In this document: piece after piece, positions 2,640 to 18,251 of the stretch
Layout: each line of letters opens with the position of its first letter
Numbering within the stretch: the first letter of the stretch is position 1
Source of the DNA: an uncultured Anaerolineaceae bacterium
GTDB lineage: Bacteria > Chloroflexota > Anaerolineae > Anaerolineales > UBA4823
Length of the DNA: 64,000 nucleotides
NCBI GenBank assembly: GCA_964486825.1
Contig: CAZAQS010000002.1
Span: 100 to 64,099, forward strand
Direction: 5' to 3'
Program-made: the position numbers and the translations under genes
The notes under the pieces: generated by a model
Told to the model about the DNA's origin: nothing
The model's input: only the letters and a program-made list of their open reading frames with translations
Database searches by the model: none

Positions 2640-2667
2640 CGGTTTTCACAGCAAAATAACAACTACA

Positions 2668-2705
2668 GGAGAACGCGGAATTAATCCGCGTTCTCCTTTT
2701 TATTT
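2668..2705 (+). terminator. Rho-independent terminator after clpC
   Basis: 12-bp perfect stem GGAGAACGCGGA / TCCGCGTTCTCC (2668-2679 / 2685-2696), 5-nt loop, followed by TTTTTATTT. Confidence 0.75.
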
Positions 2706-2944
2706 AGTGTTTTTGCACCAAGTACGATCGTGAGCAATTCCAGTGCTGATGTTTTCTCACAAACCTGTGCCAGTACCGCAGCCATGCCAATTAGTGAATC
2801 CAGGACAGCAGGCATAACCTGCGTTGCCCATGCAGTTTCTAAGGCATCCTTGAAACTCCGCTGTGCTTCGGAATATTGACCAATTACGCCAGTTTTACTA
2901 TTGATTGCTCCATCTTGTATATCACTGATACCTACACCAACCAA
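2681..2944 (-). CDS. Hypothetical 87-aa protein (doubtful)
   Basis: ORF only; TTG start; 3' end overlaps the clpC terminator hairpin; no recognisable motif. Confidence 0.25.
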   Translation of the reverse strand: MVGVGISDIQDGAINSKTGVIGQYSEAQRSFKDALETAWATQVMPAVLDSLIGMAAVLAQVCEKTSALELLTIVLGAKTLNKKENAD

Positions 2945-3011
2945 ATTAGATTCGGCTTATATCCGAACAAATGTACTATGCAGCAAATAAGGGCAAGAGT
3001 ATAATTATCGT

Positions 3012-4451
3012 ATGACCAAGCTTCGCACCCAATATGTTTGCCAGAACTGTGGGCGGACCGCTCCTCGCAATATGGGACGCTGCCCACAATGCAACGCCTG
3101 GAACTCAATGGTTGAGGAGGTGATCGCTACGACAACTCCTGCCGCGAGCGCCAGGCTGCGTGGCGTATCATCAGTTTCCGAGCCGCGCCGCCTTTCTGAA
3201 ATTACTACCGACGGTGAGGAGCGCATACCTCTATCCATTGGAGAGTTCTCGCGCGTCCTAGGTGGAGGGATCGTGCCTGGTTCCATCGTTTTGGTCGGTG
3301 GAGACCCTGGCATTGGCAAATCCACCCTCTTGCTTCAACTTGCCCTCGAGATCGCCGGGCGAGCTCAAGTCTTATACGTATCCGGGGAAGAGTCAGAGCG
3401 CCAGATCAAGATGCGCGCTACCCGCCTGCTGCGGGACTCCGATTCCAATTCGGGATCTGAGCGGGGTATGCCCGAATCCCTGTTCCTGGTTACTGAAACC
3501 AACTTGAGCGTGATACTGGAGCATATCGCCAGTGTCCAACCAACCTTGCTGGTGCTCGACTCTGTCCAGACCACTTATTTACCTGAGCTGGAGTCTTCCG
3601 CCGGATCGGTTTCACAGGTCCGTGAAAGCGCTTCCCGCCTGAGAGAGCTGGCTAAATCTTCTGGCATCTCGGTTTTTCTGATCGGTCACGTCACCAAGGA
3701 AGGCGTCATTGCTGGGCCGCGCGTCCTGGAGCATATCGTGGATACGGTGCTCTATCTGGAAGGCGATCGTTTCCAGTCTTACCGCCTGTTGCGGTCTGTG
3801 AAGAACCGTTTTGGGGCCACATCGGAAGTGGGCGTATTCGAAATGGGTGAGCGGGGCATGGATGAAGTGACCAATCCCTCGGAGGCCTTCTTGGCTGAGC
3901 GGATGGTCAACGCCCCCGGTTCGGCGATTGCCGTAACGATGGAAGGCACCCGGCCGTTGCTGGTGGAGATCCAAGGCCTGACCAGCGCCACCTCTTTCGG
4001 CAACCCGCGCCGCACACCGAATGGGGTGGATTTCAACCGCCTGCTGCTTACAGTAGCAGTCTTAACCCGGCGAGTAGGGCTGCGCCTGGGCGAGCAGGAT
4101 GTGTTCGTCAACGTGGTCAGCGGGATTAAGGTGGGAGAGCCGGCGGCTGACCTCGCCATCGCTGCGGCCATCGCTTCCTCGGTGCGTGATGCACCCGTGC
4201 GCGCGGATACTGTCCTGATCGGCGAGATTGGTCTTTCCGGTGAACTGCGTATGGTTGGACAGATGCCGGCCCGCTTGAGGGAAGCTGCCAAGCTTGGTTT
4301 TAGAACAGCCATTGTTCCACACCGGCTGAGGCGGGGAGAACCATGGCCCTCGGATATCGAAGTCGTTGAAGTTCGTTCTTTGAAGCAGGCTCTTAATCAC
4401 GCTTTGCTCTCCGATGAGGCCAGAACGGCTAAAGCCACTCAGCCAGGTTAA
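3012..4451 (+). CDS. radA: DNA repair protein RadA/Sms
   Basis: N-terminal zinc finger CQNCG...CPQC; Walker A GDPGIGKST; KNRFG motif; Lon-like C-terminal domain; clpC-radA synteny. Confidence 0.93.
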   Translation: MTKLRTQYVCQNCGRTAPRNMGRCPQCNAWNSMVEEVIATTTPAASARLRGVSSVSEPRRLSEITTDGEERIPLSIGEFSRVLGGGIVPGSIVLVGGDPGIGKSTLLLQLALEIAGRAQVLYVSGEESERQIKMRATRLLRDSDSNSGSERGMPESLFLVTETNLSVILEHIASVQPTLLVLDSVQTTYLPELESSAGSVSQVRESASRLRELAKSSGISVFLIGHVTKEGVIAGPRVLEHIVDTVLYLEGDRFQSYRLLRSVKNRFGATSEVGVFEMGERGMDEVTNPSEAFLAERMVNAPGSAIAVTMEGTRPLLVEIQGLTSATSFGNPRRTPNGVDFNRLLLTVAVLTRRVGLRLGEQDVFVNVVSGIKVGEPAADLAIAAAIASSVRDAPVRADTVLIGEIGLSGELRMVGQMPARLREAAKLGFRTAIVPHRLRRGEPWPSDIEVVEVRSLKQALNHALLSDEARTAKATQPG

Positions 4452-7439: not shown

Positions 7440-7536
7440 TAATTCGAGTATAATCAGCCATCTCCCCTTATCAATATAACCGGTCTCCCGTCTGGCAATA
7501 CCTGGCGGGTAACCTGACACATTTTTGGAGGTAATT

Positions 7537-8070
7537 GTGCCTACAGTTCTATCGAAAATCGCCCAAAATATTCTCGGTGCTCCGGCAGTTTCAAGCATCC
7601 GTCGCAACCATGGCCTGGAGCATGCCACATTGAATATACTCTCGCAGCGCTATCCGAAGGCAAACCTGGCAGGCCATTCCAATGCCGGTGGTTTCTGGTT
7701 GTTAGGGAATGTAACCACAGAAGATGTGAAGTCTGCAGTCGAAGAGGCTCTGCGCCGCATGGGGGCTGGAGAGCATAACCTGGCTGTGCATGCCAACTGC
7801 GGTACGAACTTCGTAACAGCGGGAACCATCGCTGGCATCGCCGGCGCGTTGGCAATGGCTGGCGTGGGCAGCCGCTGGAACGAGCGTCTCGAGCGCCTGC
7901 CACTGGCAGCCTCTCTGGCTACCGTAGCTTTGATCCTCTCACAGCCTCTCGGGTTGAAGATCCAGGAGCGCGTTACCACTTGTGGGGAACCTGGGTCGCT
8001 ACAGGTTATCGACATTATCCCGACTCGCCGCGGCCGTATCAAAGCGCACCAGATCATCACACGAGGTTAG
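7537..8070 (+). CDS. Conserved hypothetical protein with His/Cys motifs
   Basis: ORF 7525-8070; GGAGGT precedes GTG 7537; motifs RRNHGLEHAT and AVHANCGTNF; hydrophobic C-terminal half. Confidence 0.55.
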   Translation: MPTVLSKIAQNILGAPAVSSIRRNHGLEHATLNILSQRYPKANLAGHSNAGGFWLLGNVTTEDVKSAVEEALRRMGAGEHNLAVHANCGTNFVTAGTIAGIAGALAMAGVGSRWNERLERLPLAASLATVALILSQPLGLKIQERVTTCGEPGSLQVIDIIPTRRGRIKAHQIITRG

Positions 8071-8071
8071 T

Positions 8072-9061
8072 ATGGTTCAAATCCCGCCGGTAGTGTACCT
8101 GCTGCACGGCGAAGATGAGTATGCGATCACCCAGTTCATCGCCGGGCTTCAGGCGAAGCTGGGTGATCCCGCGCTGGTAGACCTGAATACGACCCGCCTG
8201 GACGGTCGCTCAGTCACTTACTCGGAGATCGAAGCAGCTGTGAGTAGCTTACCTTTTATGGGTAAGCGTCGCCTGGTTTTGATGTCTAACCCCCTCGCTT
8301 ATCTCAATCGGCAGGCAGAAAGCGAGCGCTTTAAGGCTTTGCTCCCGCGTATCCCTGCTGCTGTGGCTTTCGTCCTTTACGAGTTCCGTCCCTTTATGAC
8401 CAAAAAGGATCGGAAGTACCAATGGCTTGAAAAACTTTCCCAGGCTTCAGAGGGTAGGATTTATCTGAAGCTATTCCCTCTCCCGAAAAGCGGTGAGATG
8501 CCCTCTCGCATCCAGAAGCTGGCGAAGGAAGCCGGCGGGGAGATTACTCTCCAGGCAGCCCAGTTGCTGGCTGCTTTGGTAGGCGAGAACCCGCGGCTCG
8601 CCCAGCACGAGCTCAATAAGCTGCTCGCTTATGTAAATTACAGGCGCTCTATTGAAGAGGAGGATGTCCAAAGCTTGACGGCAGATGTCGGCCAGGGGGA
8701 TATCTTCGAAATGGTTGACGCCATCGGCAACCGTGATGGTAAGATGGCCTTGCAAATGCTGCACAGGCTGTTATTGGAACAAGATGTGCCTTTGATTAAT
8801 GGGATGGTTGTGCGCCAATTCCGCCTGCTGCTGCTCTCGCGTGAAATCCTGGATAACGGCGGGCAGCAAGGGGATGTGAACCGCGAGCTAAAGCTGCATC
8901 CCTATGTAGGCGAAAAGATCGTCAAGCAGGTGCGACACTTTACCATGCAGGATTTAGAAACGATTTTCCACCGCTTGCTGGCGATGGATGTGGCTGTAAA
9001 ATCGGGGGAGATCGACCCGGTCCTGGCGCTGGATACCCTTATCGCTGGTATTACCTCTTAG
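8072..9061 (+). CDS. holA: DNA polymerase III delta subunit
   Basis: N-terminus PPVVYLLHGEDEYAI...; overall delta-subunit layout; ATG 8072 follows the upstream stop (8068-8070) and a GAGG RBS; the 7982 extension overlaps the previous gene. Confidence 0.8.
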   Translation: MVQIPPVVYLLHGEDEYAITQFIAGLQAKLGDPALVDLNTTRLDGRSVTYSEIEAAVSSLPFMGKRRLVLMSNPLAYLNRQAESERFKALLPRIPAAVAFVLYEFRPFMTKKDRKYQWLEKLSQASEGRIYLKLFPLPKSGEMPSRIQKLAKEAGGEITLQAAQLLAALVGENPRLAQHELNKLLAYVNYRRSIEEEDVQSLTADVGQGDIFEMVDAIGNRDGKMALQMLHRLLLEQDVPLINGMVVRQFRLLLLSREILDNGGQQGDVNRELKLHPYVGEKIVKQVRHFTMQDLETIFHRLLAMDVAVKSGEIDPVLALDTLIAGITS

Positions 9062-9106
9062 CTATCCATCCAGCTCGTTTGTGACCGGCAGTTTTCTCAA
9101 TTGCCC

Positions 9107-9337
9107 TTATTCTTTGCCATTCACGCCCAACCAGAAGTGGTTTGGCATCACCGATCCATTGGTGCGCACTTCCACTTCTTTGGCTTTGACCGGGTTTCCA
9201 TTGATCATGCTGGGGTGAACAAAGCATAGATTGGGGGAATGCCCGTATTTATCTTTGTAATAGTTGGCGGCGCGCTCGATTTTTGCTACCAAATCGGCTT
9301 TCGGGTCATTGTCAAACCAAAGCATTCCGATGTCCAT
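9107..9337 (-). CDS. 76-aa hypothetical protein, second gene of the putative SOS operon
   Basis: GGGAGA RBS 5 nt before the ATG; only 14 nt after the upstream ATPase stop; no family recognised. Confidence 0.65.
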   Translation of the reverse strand: MDIGMLWFDNDPKADLVAKIERAANYYKDKYGHSPNLCFVHPSMINGNPVKAKEVEVRTNGSVMPNHFWLGVNGKE

Positions 9338-9351
9338 GGATTTCTCCCAAT

Positions 9352-10251
9352 TTAATTCAGGCTAGGTACCCAGAACTGCACCCAATCGCTATCCACCAGT
9401 ACACCGAACTGTGCGCCAGGTATCAGCCTATGTGGATATTGTATCCGCTTCTCGTTACTTGCGCTTGAAAAAATGCCTTCCTGTGGTCTGGCTTGCATAT
9501 ATCCGACCAACCAGGTCCCAAAGCGCTCAAGTACTTCCGGTTGCACCATGTTTTCTTTTTGTACTTCCAGGGTAGCTACCGTCCAGATGCGGAACTGAGG
9601 ACCATTTGCGATAGTCCATAAGAGCAGGTCCAACAATTCGGCATCTAGAGAGTTGGTCAGCTCATCTAGCCCATCTACCGCAAGGATGAAAGCCGGACCG
9701 TGATCACGCCCGTTGCGGCGTTGTTCCAGCAGGTTAGCCAGCTCGTGGATCGTTTCGTAAGCTTTTTCGTTATAGGGTGCAGATATCTTGTAAGCATGCG
9801 GTTTCTGGCTGAGCCAGGCGATATCACCAAGCTGGAAGGTGATGCAACTGAAGCGGAACTTACGTGGGGAATTGACCAGGCAAGCTGAGCTAAGGATGGA
9901 TAGCATCAGCCTGGTTTTACCACTTCCTGGATCTCCGAGGATCAGCAAAGAGCCCGCATCTGAGCTCGACAGATCCATCAAGATCGGTGAGCCGTCCTCC
10001 GATGAACCGATCAGAATGGAGTACTCCGGAACTGTACCCATTTGCCCCAACACCTGTTCCAAAGAAGGAATTTTGATCTGGACGATCGAATTGTGATAAC
10101 GGGGGTCAAGACCAGAGGAGCTCCTGGATCCTTTTTGCAGGCTGTCTAGTGTTTCCCTGGCGCCGTTTGTCAGCTCGGTCGCCAGGCGGGATACGAGATC
10201 TACCCCTATTGCCAGCCGGTTGTTCTTATTGTGGTTTTCGGGCATGACCAT
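9352..10251 (-). CDS. Stand-alone FtsK/SpoIIIE-like P-loop ATPase
   Basis: Walker A LILGDPGSGKT; Walker B FILAVDGLDE; motif order resembles a single FtsK/EssC motor domain; no TM; start set at ATG 10251 (GAAGGA RBS) because the 10308 extension overlaps the promoter. Confidence 0.7.
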   Translation of the reverse strand: MVMPENHNKNNRLAIGVDLVSRLATELTNGARETLDSLQKGSRSSSGLDPRYHNSIVQIKIPSLEQVLGQMGTVPEYSILIGSSEDGSPILMDLSSSDAGSLLILGDPGSGKTRLMLSILSSACLVNSPRKFRFSCITFQLGDIAWLSQKPHAYKISAPYNEKAYETIHELANLLEQRRNGRDHGPAFILAVDGLDELTNSLDAELLDLLLWTIANGPQFRIWTVATLEVQKENMVQPEVLERFGTWLVGYMQARPQEGIFSSASNEKRIQYPHRLIPGAQFGVLVDSDWVQFWVPSLN

Positions 10252-10272
10252 CTTTGAGATCCTTCTGATACT

Positions 10273-10301
10273 ATAATAATAGAACATATGTTCGTTGTCA
10301 A
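10273..10301 (-). promoter_or_regulatory. Sigma-70-type promoter of the ATPase/76-aa operon
   Basis: Minus strand reads TTGACA (10301-10296), a 17-nt spacer, then TATTAT (10278-10273), about 20 nt upstream of ATG 10251. Confidence 0.6.
10281..10294 (-). promoter_or_regulatory. Candidate LexA operator (Cheo-type SOS box)
   Basis: Minus strand CGAACATATGTTCT; core GAACATATGTTC (10282-10293) is a perfect 12-bp palindrome matching GAAC-N4-GTTC; located inside the promoter spacer. Confidence 0.6.
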
Positions 10302-10356
10302 GAGGCAATCGTCCGAAATGATGGCTGGATACCGGATATCTTATGCTTGCTTATAG

Positions 10357-10423
10357 TTCAAATAAATAAACTTTATACAATGCCTATGAACACTAACATT
10401 GGCATTTAGGGAAGTTGTATAAA
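10357..10423 (-). terminator. Probable terminator downstream of the DUF5996-like gene
   Basis: Composite hairpin: outer arms TTTATACAA / TTGTATAAA (10372-10380 / 10415-10423) and inner arms AATGCC / GGCATT; followed on the minus strand by GTTTATTTATTT. Confidence 0.45.
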
Positions 10424-10591
10424 CAGTTTTAGGTCAGCAATAATTGAGAATGTCCGCCTGGGAGGTCCAACACCGGGAAGTCTACATGGTGGAATTCAAA
10501 GTCTGGTTCAACCAAATACTTACGGCGGTAGAAGCAGGCGCCACGATTTCTTCCGGATTGAGTACACCGGTGGGAATTAGTTCAACCCAAC

Positions 10592-11539
10592 CTATTTGTA
10601 AGAATCGGGGGAAATCAGAAAACTTTGCTCCAAAGTGGCGCGATCCCAGCTTGCCAGGTTTGCTCCCGCCTCGTAGGTGGATTGAAAAAAGTCCAGTAAG
10701 ACCTTATCCCAGTCGCCCGACGTGCGTATGGCTTCGTAGGGTAGGATAAACTCTTTTAAATCCGGGTGGTAATAGGCTTGCGCGGTTTGGATATTGTATT
10801 GAGAGTACCCATCAGGTTCCGGGTAGATGTACGCGTAAAATGCAGGCTCCCCCAGGCCAGCGCCGGGCCAAAAACCGATGCTGCTGACTTCGTCAACGTA
10901 CGCCTCTTGCATCACGTATTTAGCGACGTGGTATGCTTTCTCCATGATCGGTGCATTGCGCCCCGAGAAGCGCGAGGCAGCCAGGTCAAAGCTGCCCCAA
11001 AAAAATTGGACCGGGCTGGCTTTCCCACAGAATCGGCCTCGGAAGGATTTCATTACCCGATCCACCTGGAGCAGCAATTGCCAGAAGCGGTGGGCATATT
11101 CCGGGTCGTAAGTGGTGTGGGTCTGATCCTGCTCGAATGGAATCCGCTGCTCCACTTCGACAGGTACCGTCCAAATCTCGACATCGACGCCCAAGGAGTT
11201 CAGCGCTTTCATGATTTCCCGGTAAAAATCAGCCACCGGACGATCCGCCAGCGGGAGGCTGCGAGTGGCGCTGCTGCTGCTCTGGATTTGCAGGACGTGG
11301 TCGATGAAATCGAAATCGATCTGGATCACTTGGCTGCCGTAGGGCATCGGTGAGGTCGTCAGTCCGCGGGCGGTCAGATAGAGAGTCGTGTGCCACCAGT
11401 GGTTGACCATAGGCGCTAACGACAGGCGGATTTTTCCAACGATTTGCATCCACATGTGCAGGCTGGCTTGAGTATCAACCCAGGCTTCCAGCGGTAGTTC
11501 GGGTAAGGCGTTTTTGGGGGTAGTGTCAGAGTCGCTCAT
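10592..11539 (-). CDS. DUF5996-like protein
   Basis: 315 aa; N-terminal segment LHMWMQIVGKIRLSLAPMVNHWWHTTLYLTARGLTTSPMP matches my recollection of the DUF5996 family. Confidence 0.65.
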   Translation of the reverse strand: MSDSDTTPKNALPELPLEAWVDTQASLHMWMQIVGKIRLSLAPMVNHWWHTTLYLTARGLTTSPMPYGSQVIQIDFDFIDHVLQIQSSSSATRSLPLADRPVADFYREIMKALNSLGVDVEIWTVPVEVEQRIPFEQDQTHTTYDPEYAHRFWQLLLQVDRVMKSFRGRFCGKASPVQFFWGSFDLAASRFSGRNAPIMEKAYHVAKYVMQEAYVDEVSSIGFWPGAGLGEPAFYAYIYPEPDGYSQYNIQTAQAYYHPDLKEFILPYEAIRTSGDWDKVLLDFFQSTYEAGANLASWDRATLEQSFLISPDSYK

Positions 11540-15451: not shown

Positions 15452-15521
15452 TACCAAAGGCCCCGCGGACGAACCACGAGGCCCTCAGTCGGCGAGGTGG
15501 GCGCGGAGGGACTCGAACCCA
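15452..15521 (-). repeat. Direct repeat copy 2 (3' part of the intact tRNA-Val plus terminator)
   Basis: See copy 1. Confidence 0.9.
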
Positions 15522-15571
15522 CGACCTCACGGATGTGAACCGTGCACTCTAACCAGCTGAGCTACGCGCCC
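15498..15571 (-). tRNA. tRNA-Val (anticodon CAC)
   Basis: Reverse complement folds as a cloverleaf: GGGCGCG-TA-GCTC-AGCTGGTTA-GAGT-G-CACGG-TTCACAT-CCGTG-AGGTC-GTGGG-TTCGAGT-CCCTC-CGCGCCC-A; one U-U mismatch in the T stem; CCA not encoded; downstream G-U-containing hairpin plus TTTGGTATT. Confidence 0.92.
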
Positions 15572-18002: not shown

Positions 18003-18021
18003 AATAACAATCGTATAAGAT

Positions 18022-18175
18022 AACCTTCGGGGCAGGGTGAGGGGTGGACGAGGTGTCCACTACCAATTCCCGATCGGCGGTAAAGCCCGCGAGCGCAAGG
18101 CGAAAAGTACTCGCCCAACGTGCATGATCCGGTGAAACTCCGGGGCCGACGGTACAGTCCGGATGAAAGAAGGTT
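18022..18175 (+). promoter_or_regulatory. FMN riboswitch (RFN element) aptamer
   Basis: P1 AACCTTC / GAAGGTT; conserved blocks GGGGCAGGGTGA, AATTCCC, CGGCGGTAAAGCCCGCGAGC, GGTGAAACTCCGG, GCCGACGGTACAGTCCGGATG, AAAGAAGG in the canonical order. Confidence 0.9.
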
Positions 18176-18251
18176 AATGCCTGAGCATGGTATTGCGCGT
18201 AATCAAGCTTTGTCGCGTAAAGCGCCTGCTCTTCAGGCATACTGGAACCCT

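Follow-up and report, generated by a model that had tools for sequence, protein, structure and literature searches.

What does a near-consensus promoter control when a perfect palindrome lies between its −35 and −10 hexamers, and which regulator recognizes that palindrome? The question is raised by a 64,000-nucleotide (nt) stretch of DNA from an uncultured Anaerolineaceae bacterium (GenBank assembly GCA_964486825.1, contig CAZAQS010000002.1; the whole stretch is referred to here as the window). Its minus strand carries an operon of two genes, the first encoding a 299-amino-acid (aa) P-loop protein of the FtsK/SpoIIIE family and the second a protein of 76 aa. We consider it likely that this is a LexA-repressed operon conserved across the Anaerolineae and reaching at least Ca. 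Limnocylindria, in which the 76-aa protein would be the effector and the 299-aa protein a degenerate partner.

The promoter (10301–10273) scores 11 of 12 in a scan against the sigma-70 consensus. The 17-nt spacer between its hexamers, ACGAACATATGTTCTAT, contains the palindrome, so that the putative operator (CGAACATATGTTCT, 26.1 bits on the position weight matrix (PWM) of the clade) overlaps the core promoter elements in a repression geometry. Both hexamers, the spacer, the palindrome, the ribosome-binding sites and the bounds of the open reading frames (ORFs) lie where the initial annotation, made from this DNA alone, had placed them. The palindrome by itself proves nothing, because the 64-kb window holds one GAAC-N4-GTTC where 0.76 would be expected by chance, a difference that is not significant alone. 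The combined −35/box/−10 pattern occurs once in the window and in none of 100 shuffles.

Related loci were collected from a scan of one genome per species, and the best 80 of at least 551 stretches encoding a relative of the small protein were compared. All 80 are from the Chloroflexota, mostly from the Anaerolineae, and one is from Ca. Aquidulcis (class Ca. Limnocylindria); relatives of Anaerolinea or Levilinea are among the loci. Counted by regular expression, 78 perfect GAAC-N4-GTTC sites fall within the 86.5 kb ahead of the module, a zone delimited post hoc, and 5 within the other 731 kb. These densities (0.90 against 0.0068 per kb) correspond to a 132-fold enrichment at the module promoter. 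Comparison of orthologous loci, proposed in the initial annotation, finds the box and the module conserved together: a box of at least 12 bits is present at the module promoter in all 78 loci that have upstream sequence. A perfect box is lacking in 19 of the 80 loci. In 17 of these a box with one mismatch, scoring 12 bits or more, occupies the same position; the other two are the loci that lack upstream sequence.

The box is kept in every testable locus despite ATPase identities of 25–41% and GC (guanine–cytosine) contents of 0.44–0.66. Its position tracks the gene: counted from the start of the small gene, it lies at −840 to −1000 in loci with the ATPase gene and at −30 to −160 in those without. 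Two promoter forms recur among the 80 loci. The first consists of TTGACA, 2–3 nt, GAACnnnnGTTC, t-nn and TATAAT, and the second, often found alongside it, of TATAAT-TA-GAACATAAGTTC. Close orthologs retain TTGACA-box-TATxAT, the TTGACA being kept in loci L001, L282 and L283, and the operators of the last two read TTGACAACGAACATTTGTTCTATTATGAT (L282) and TTGACAAAGAACATTTGTTCTATTATTAT (L283). The operator consensus of the clade is tAGAAC-A(T/A)A(T)-GTTCTa.

An ATPase homologue (25–41% identity) lies immediately upstream of the small gene in 37 of the 80 loci, often with a 4-nt overlap; among orthologs the gap separating the two genes varies from −29 to +36 nt. The remaining 43 loci have only the small gene behind the box. 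As the small gene is invariant and the ATPase is found in only 37 loci, the conserved core is the 76-aa protein, and not the ATPase, which had been cast as the main actor. The small protein has more than 562 homologues at 60–73% identity, and an exhaustive profile search gave at least 2,169 clusters (50% identity), almost all of them stand-alone proteins of 75–100 aa. Its invariant or near-invariant positions include G4-M-L-W-F-D9-N-D11, K19, R22, Y26, Y27, K30-Y-G32, C38, H41-P42, P65-N-H67 and W69-x-G71. Distant copies in L274 and L243 retain the D-x-D, C38 and H67 positions, and D9/D11, C38 and H67 may together make up a site.

The predicted structure of the small protein is a confident β-α-β-β-β model (AlphaFold2, predicted local distance difference test (pLDDT) 82.5). 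As the initial annotation had supposed, it belongs to no recognizable family: neither Pfam (for which 24 members were also run) nor NCBIfam, PHROGs or PADLOC gave a match. A fold search with the model gave nothing significant, the best values being E=0.16 for the PDB and E=0.013 for BFVD, and a likeness to the HK97 capsid A-domain at this level was treated as noise. A profile sequence search against the PDB similarly returned antibody light-chain noise only, and for the examples on NCBI contigs that were looked up, the collection searched gives neither an accession nor a name. Kinship with the FtsK gamma domain was rejected on predicted secondary structure, gamma being a winged helix, and kinship with WXG100, LysM/YneA, DinI or YebG was rejected as no profile or fold match was obtained.

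The larger protein matches PF01580 (FtsK_SpoIIIE) with 43.6 bits against a cut-off of 24. The match spans residues 79–180 and only positions 20–121 of the 221 in the profile. There is no transmembrane (TM) segment and no match to PF09397 (gamma), so the first description of an FtsK/SpoIIIE-like protein lacking a membrane anchor and a gamma domain holds. Homology searching gave 22 relatives, and the best sequence matches among solved structures are to the EccC/FtsK family (4nh0, 3.3e-15; also 7np7). A second, longer type occurs in the Chloroflexota: proteins of 355–395 aa with FtsK_alpha and FtsK_SpoIIIE domains (PF17854 and PF01580), no TM segment and no gamma domain, which are 70–87% conserved and annotated as ‘DNA translocase FtsK’ in Chloroflexi/Anaerolineae metagenome-assembled genomes (MAGs), including HGW-Chloroflexi-1. 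Residues 13–294 of the window protein align by hhalign to residues 43–317 of the long type (98.9%, E=1.5e-17). This near full-length alignment means that the first ~110 residues, previously called unassignable, are a decayed alpha-domain region.

The catalytic motifs are progressively altered between these types. Walker A is GTTGSGKT in the long type, and is intact both in L274, a locus with lexA beside the module (GDEGAGKT), and in the window (GDPGSGKT, fitting GxxGxGK[ST]); its lysine is gone in about a quarter of the aligned short-type copies. At Walker B the long type has VDEL and L274 has VDQA; the short types have Asp-Asp or Asp-Gly (AVDGL in the window), with L019 as the exception. The sensor motif is ATQRP in the long type and LSTER in L274, and is absent from the short types (WTVATLEV in the window). 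The window copy thus has neither the catalytic glutamate nor the aTQRP of a motor, and neither the membrane anchor nor the C-terminal gamma domain (KOPS/XerD). The short type also evolves fast, with 25–41% identity between genera. The 299-aa protein is, on sequence grounds, a degenerate paralogue of the lexA-linked soluble FtsK alpha-beta protein, and the short type is concluded from its motifs to be a predicted hydrolysis-deficient derivative of FtsK, more likely an adaptor than a pump.

This bears on the ‘DNA translocase’ proposed at first, in which the window protein would be an active, SOS-induced, soluble FtsK/SftA-like motor that clears or segregates DNA, and the small protein its regulator or a DNA-recognition subunit replacing gamma. 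Membership of the FtsK/SpoIIIE family, the intact Walker A of the window copy and the fully canonical motor motifs of the long-type relatives beside lexA all speak for a motor, as does the SOS induction of E. coli ftsK (PMC4080785). Against these stand the Walker B and sensor changes of nearly all short types and the lost Walker A lysines, the dispensability of the ATPase in 43 of the 80 genomes, and the predicted β-rich structure of the small protein, unlike the winged helix of gamma. A canonical alpha-beta-gamma FtsK is, moreover, present separately in the class, and a motor is therefore improbable. In L021 this FtsK (832 aa, 8595–11093), which no LexA box precedes, is encoded 2.4 kb downstream from a small gene that stands alone, so that Anaerolineae retain an ordinary FtsK in addition to the SOS-linked paralogue.

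GAAC-N4-GTTC is reportedly also the LexA motif of Dehalococcoides. Public collections (IMG/VR and metagenomes) were searched for the promoter-plus-box pattern, and at least 120 metagenome loci matched. The gene immediately downstream is lexA in 56 of the 120 metagenome matches listed. About 42 of 54 of these LexA proteins are of a Chloroflexi type, sharing 44–64% identity with the LexA of locus L256 and merely 35–39% with that of B. subtilis; 6 LexA proteins among the pattern matches look Firmicute-like. In L256 itself lexA is divergent from a short-type ATPase gene, with the boxes between the two. The pattern also lies ahead of recA, uvrB, a dinB-like polymerase gene, imuA-/imuB-like genes and many 79-aa LysM/TM yneA-like genes, and in IMG/VR about 15 of 78 matches are directly upstream of recA. 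This range of genes indicates that the pattern marks SOS promoters.

The clade motif is found at the promoter of lexA itself in L279, L256, L274, L243 and L281. In HGW-Chloroflexi-1 (L279), lexA has TTGACAtCGAACAAATGTTCTggTATAAT and a second box, and its promoter, cTTGACAtCGAACAAATGTTCTggTATAATagcgaATAGAACAAACGTTCG, is of the same design as that of the window. The initial annotation had pointed to lexA, recA and uvrA as the promoters to inspect; the box is found at lexA of relatives and, among the pattern matches, at recA and uvrB. In the window tblastn detects neither lexA nor recA, nor does it in any of the 80 genome loci, so that autoregulation is shown via the metagenome and MAG loci. It is thus very probable, as first proposed, that LexA uses the window palindrome as an operator, placed in repression geometry, and regulation by LexA occlusion, relieved by RecA-stimulated cleavage of LexA, is strongly supported by comparison as the predicted mode of control.

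The operator might be real and yet be bound by another regulator, such as a helix–turn–helix protein or a prophage-type LexA-like repressor, which would place the operon outside the SOS response. The absence of lexA from the window leaves room for this, binding by LexA being a prediction, and so do the S24-family phage repressors, which can share LexA-like sites, and the several viral contigs that carry the pattern. Such a regulator would have to account for the same promoter-plus-box ahead of bona fide lexA genes (the LexA proteins of L279, L274 and L256 are confirmed by LexA_DNA_bind and Peptidase_S24 domains) and of classic SOS genes, and for the adjacency of the module to lexA in several lineages. 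The motif also equals the known LexA box of B. subtilis and other Gram-positive bacteria (PMC3323433). A non-LexA regulator is accordingly very improbable.

Two groups of these pattern matches have features of their own. The ~15 IMG/VR recA contigs (L091, L094, L096, L099, L104, L110, L111, L116, L119, L131–L133, L136, L142 and L143) have a GC content of about 0.44 and the box in the spacer of the recA promoter; these ‘viral’ contigs are probably host DNA or prophage-flanking sequence. The yneA-like genes (metagenome loci L165, L173, L174, L185, L271 and L278) encode proteins of 79–82 aa with a TM segment and a LysM domain (MFGKLL...VVRPGDTLW...), starting 8–9 nt behind the promoter-plus-box, and look like YneA/ChiZ-type SOS division inhibitors of high-GC bacteria.

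The surroundings of the module indicate its history. In ~47 of the 80 loci, with the ATPase or without it, holA-DUF6391 and the small gene run towards each other, and these loci are therefore orthologous. The holA/DUF6391 neighbours are also found in L243, L279, L281, L282 and L283, and they mark the window locus as an ortholog of the lexA-linked clusters. Downstream of the module L282 and L283 share the order of the window (small gene, holA, DUF6391, TM protein, MerR, major facilitator superfamily (MFS) transporter, radA, clpC), and upstream their flanks differ from it. At stand-alone loci the upstream ORFs are unrelated housekeeping genes (RNA methyltransferase, pyruvate phosphate dikinase). 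The ATPase had been called an orphan; the module is instead a syntenic, vertically inherited locus found across the Anaerolineae and in Ca. Limnocylindria.

An FtsK-like gene lies beside lexA or behind its own box in a dozen metagenome loci. L274 has one box ahead of lexA and another after it, followed by an FtsK-like gene (407 aa) and then the small gene (73 aa, ATGA overlap). L243 has two boxes followed by lexA, an FtsK-like gene, a gene for a two-TM protein, an ORF and the small gene, the last being convergent with the holA-DUF6391 pair that also neighbours the module in the window; the same five-gene cluster occurs in HGW-Chloroflexi-1 (GCA_002842085.1) and in the MAG L281. The window locus looks like a reduced form of this ancestral lexA-led cluster, and its variable upstream flank is consistent with lexA having left its position there. 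The loci display an evolutionary series from lexA-ftsK(alpha-beta, DE)-TM-orf-small to lexA-ftsK-like(DQ)-small, then to box-short ATPase(DD/DG)-small, the state of the window, and finally to box-small alone.

The lexA-linked clusters hold two further unannotated genes, both absent from the reduced module of the window and neither with a Pfam match. The first encodes ~120 aa with two TM helices and a proline-rich tail, and the second a cysteine-rich protein of 150–203 aa (CxxC-type motifs) directly behind LexA boxes; their positions are L243 6448–6834, L268 2721–3083, L279 7246–7599, L197 329–781 and L268 3080–3691. The 285-nt spacer between lexA and ftsK in L279 (5716–6000) consists of the tandem repeats (CGCAACA)n and (GCGGCAATCCCGATT)n with an inverted repeat.

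The same synteny speaks to the idea of a decayed mobile element, in which the pair would be a TraB/FtsK-type conjugative pump with an accessory protein, or an ATPase like those of type VII secretion systems (T7SS; EccC/EssC) with its substrate. The best PDB sequence matches are indeed EccC ATPase domains, and close relatives differ in what lies upstream of the module, L283 having AbiEii there. The order from holA through DUF6391, MerR, MFS and radA to clpC is nevertheless conserved across genomes, the distribution is class-wide and vertical, and there is no integrase, relaxase, Rep, T7SS membrane gene or Ecc/Esx gene nearby, the neighbours being holA and DUF5996. The T7SS family score in NCBIfam is 36.9 against a cut-off of 346, the ATPase has a single domain and no TM segment, and the partner has no WXG100 match and is not predicted to be a helical hairpin of that kind. 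PHROG and PADLOC give generic FtsK-like matches only, with no specific phage or defence family. A mobile origin is thus most unlikely. That the palindrome has no regulatory role, being there by chance or solely as a structural trait of a strong promoter, has a negligible probability, since, although one such site per 64 kb is close to expectation, the positional enrichment, the 78 of 78 testable loci and the shuffled controls effectively refute it.

These comparisons bear out the predicted operator, its geometry and conservation, its identity with the lexA promoter, the linkage of the genes and the decay of the motifs, and they support the proposal that the two genes form a module of the DNA-damage regulon. 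In undamaged cells a LexA dimer on AGAAC-N4-GTTCT between the −35 and −10 hexamers would block RNA polymerase. DNA damage would lead to RecA-stimulated self-cleavage of LexA and free the near-consensus promoter, and the short-leader mRNA would then be translated into the 299-aa protein and, through tight coupling, into the small one. The conserved effector and selected component would be the 76-aa protein. The 299-aa protein, an accessory and translationally coupled partner, would most likely serve it as a nucleotide-binding adaptor or scaffold and not as a DNA pump, and we infer a physical complex of the two.

YneA, SosA, ChiZ/Rv2719c and DivS are small, lexA-adjacent, LexA-repressed SOS division inhibitors, and SulA is likewise an SOS inhibitor. 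It is possible, though doubtful, that the pair delays division or chromosome segregation during repair as an analogue of these proteins. The idea is prompted by the size, repression and lexA adjacency of the known Gram-positive inhibitors, by the descent of the partner from a divisome-type DNA translocase, and by the small two-TM protein carried by related clusters. Alternatively, the small protein may modulate RecA or the replisome; the adjacency of holA is weak evidence, because the genes are convergent and the arrangement is lost in ~40% of loci. In a broader form, put forward tentatively, the 76-aa protein would found a phylum-wide SOS effector family with an unsolved fold. It would be the DNA-damage checkpoint factor of these filamentous bacteria, halting division, septation or segregation through a highly conserved target that it binds, and an FtsK-derived pseudo-ATPase would have joined it as adaptor and been lost repeatedly. 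Its gene is the only one besides lexA to retain the LexA box in all testable related Chloroflexota loci that were compared.

Several points weigh against a LexA-repressed operon with the 76-aa protein as its effector. No homology or fold support was found for an effector function of the small protein, and the division checkpoint is a guess with context analogy as its one basis. Because the ATPase was modelled poorly (pLDDT 46, too low for a fold search), the case for its loss of activity is made from motifs alone. Binding by LexA and induction by damage are predictions for Anaerolineae, and the operator preference of the window organism's LexA is taken from relatives. The PWM scan found no box of at least 12 bits outside the module promoter in 817 kb, a null result that is partly circular since the PWM was trained on the sites that it then scores; the regular-expression enrichment is independent of it, with a promoter zone that was defined after the data had been seen. 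Finally, a candidate box that the window has ahead of radA finds no counterpart in L282, L283, L079 or L071.

This candidate is the second-best LexA-box-like site of the window (2964–2977, CGAACAAATGTACT, 16.3 bits), ~35 nt upstream of radA/sms (3012–4451, plus strand), and was dropped as a second regulon member, being absent from these four radA promoters. It sits in a stretch of ~300 nt between the clpC terminator hairpin and radA (context 2640–3012). L282 and L283 lack this stretch: TATAAT and ATG come straight after the hairpin, and radA looks leaderless there. The window also contains an FMN riboswitch (18019–18178, plus strand, 96.5 bits) and a tRNA-Val(CAC) gene (15496–15571, minus strand). 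The features of the operon and its neighbours are given in Table 1. The start of the ATPase at ATG 10251 is backed by the orthologs P0002–P0021. The database homologue P0007 (317 aa) is an over-extended gene call, the N-terminus of which (...PLDNEHMFYYY) is the translated −35 hexamer and LexA box, and the N-terminus of the 318-aa TTG-start ORF of the window (9352–10308) is likewise translated from these elements.

Table 1. Features of the putative LexA-controlled operon and the adjoining genes, in window coordinates.
Feature	Position	Strand	Basis
−35 hexamer TTGACA (cTTGACA in read)	10296..10301	minus	Sequence read and promoter scan
Putative LexA (SOS) operator CGAACATATGTTCT in promoter spacer	10281..10294	minus	Sequence read and PWM
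Perfect palindromic core GAACATATGTTC of operator	10282–10293	minus	Sequence read
−10 hexamer TATTAT	10273..10278	minus	Sequence read and promoter scan
Ribosome-binding site GAAGGA, 8 nt ahead of ATG 10251	10260..10265	minus	Sequence read
Gene for 299-aa FtsK/SpoIIIE-family P-loop protein	9352..10251	minus	Pfam PF01580
Ribosome-binding site GGGAGA of small gene, in 14-nt gap past ATPase stop codon	9343..9348	minus	Sequence read
Gene for 76-aa protein, unannotated family	9107..9337	minus	Homologues, AlphaFold2
holA (DNA polymerase III delta)	7982–9061	plus	Pfam; convergent with small gene
DUF6391 gene	7525–8070	plus	Pfam; synteny marker

The SOS response of the Chloroflexota is almost unstudied, and nothing on a LexA regulon of the Anaerolineae was found in the literature searched. 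The locus supplies an operator consensus (tAGAAC-N4-GTTCTa) and a promoter architecture, which are the first operator and regulon evidence for the Anaerolineae, and a regulon member that has no counterpart in model organisms. The regulatory device itself is classical; what is new is a predicted FtsK-derived pseudo-ATPase under putative LexA control and, as the constant member of the regulon, a small protein that is highly conserved and unannotated. The locus shows the stepwise decay of an FtsK motor paralogue to a predicted pseudo-ATPase with its LexA control kept. The small protein forms a large family, encoded in at least 551 species-level genomes, that is very strongly conserved and absent from all the annotation libraries tried, a combination that usually marks direct contact with a core cellular machine. 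If the small protein were a checkpoint effector of filamentous Chloroflexota, it would be a novel kind of SOS inhibitor, acting on division or segregation, and should its function be mundane, the annotation of hundreds of genomes would still be corrected.

The promoter design resembles that of Gram-positive LexA promoters (B. subtilis lexA, recA and yneA), in which the same operator core lies in the spacer and/or just past the −10 hexamer, and paired boxes are similarly frequent here, 22–30 bp apart. Unlike the Cheo box CGAAC...GTTCG, the flanks favour tAGAAC...GTTCTa. In comparison with the described Firmicute and Actinobacterial regulons, the regulated genes have no counterpart and binding by LexA is predicted from the sequence of the site. 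The 76-aa protein is, like YneA, SosA, ChiZ and DivS, small, putatively LexA-repressed and lexA-adjacent in the ancestral cluster arrangement. Unlike these proteins and SulA, it has no similarity to them in sequence or fold, no TM segment and no LysM domain, and it is far more conserved (60–73% across the class) than known SOS inhibitors usually are.

For the 299-aa protein the closest counterpart is the long-type FtsK alpha-beta protein of the Chloroflexota, which occupies the same slot, after the LexA box or lexA and ahead of the small gene and holA; the window type differs in its fast evolution and in lacking the DE and ATQRP motifs. EccC, the source of the best solved-structure matches, likewise has regulatory ATPase domains and small-protein partners. 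The window protein is, by comparison, single-domain and has no membrane anchor, and its partner is predicted to be β-α-β-β-β and not a helical hairpin. The statement that no described SOS member has this architecture needs to be qualified, since the dinH promoter makes E. coli ftsK SOS-inducible (PMC4080785) and dinH-ftsK is likewise a LexA-controlled gene of the FtsK/SpoIIIE family. E. coli FtsK is, however, a membrane-anchored alpha-beta-gamma translocase of 147 kDa that is essential for division, whereas the window protein is a soluble, separate paralogue of 299 aa with no gamma domain, no catalytic glutamate and a small partner.

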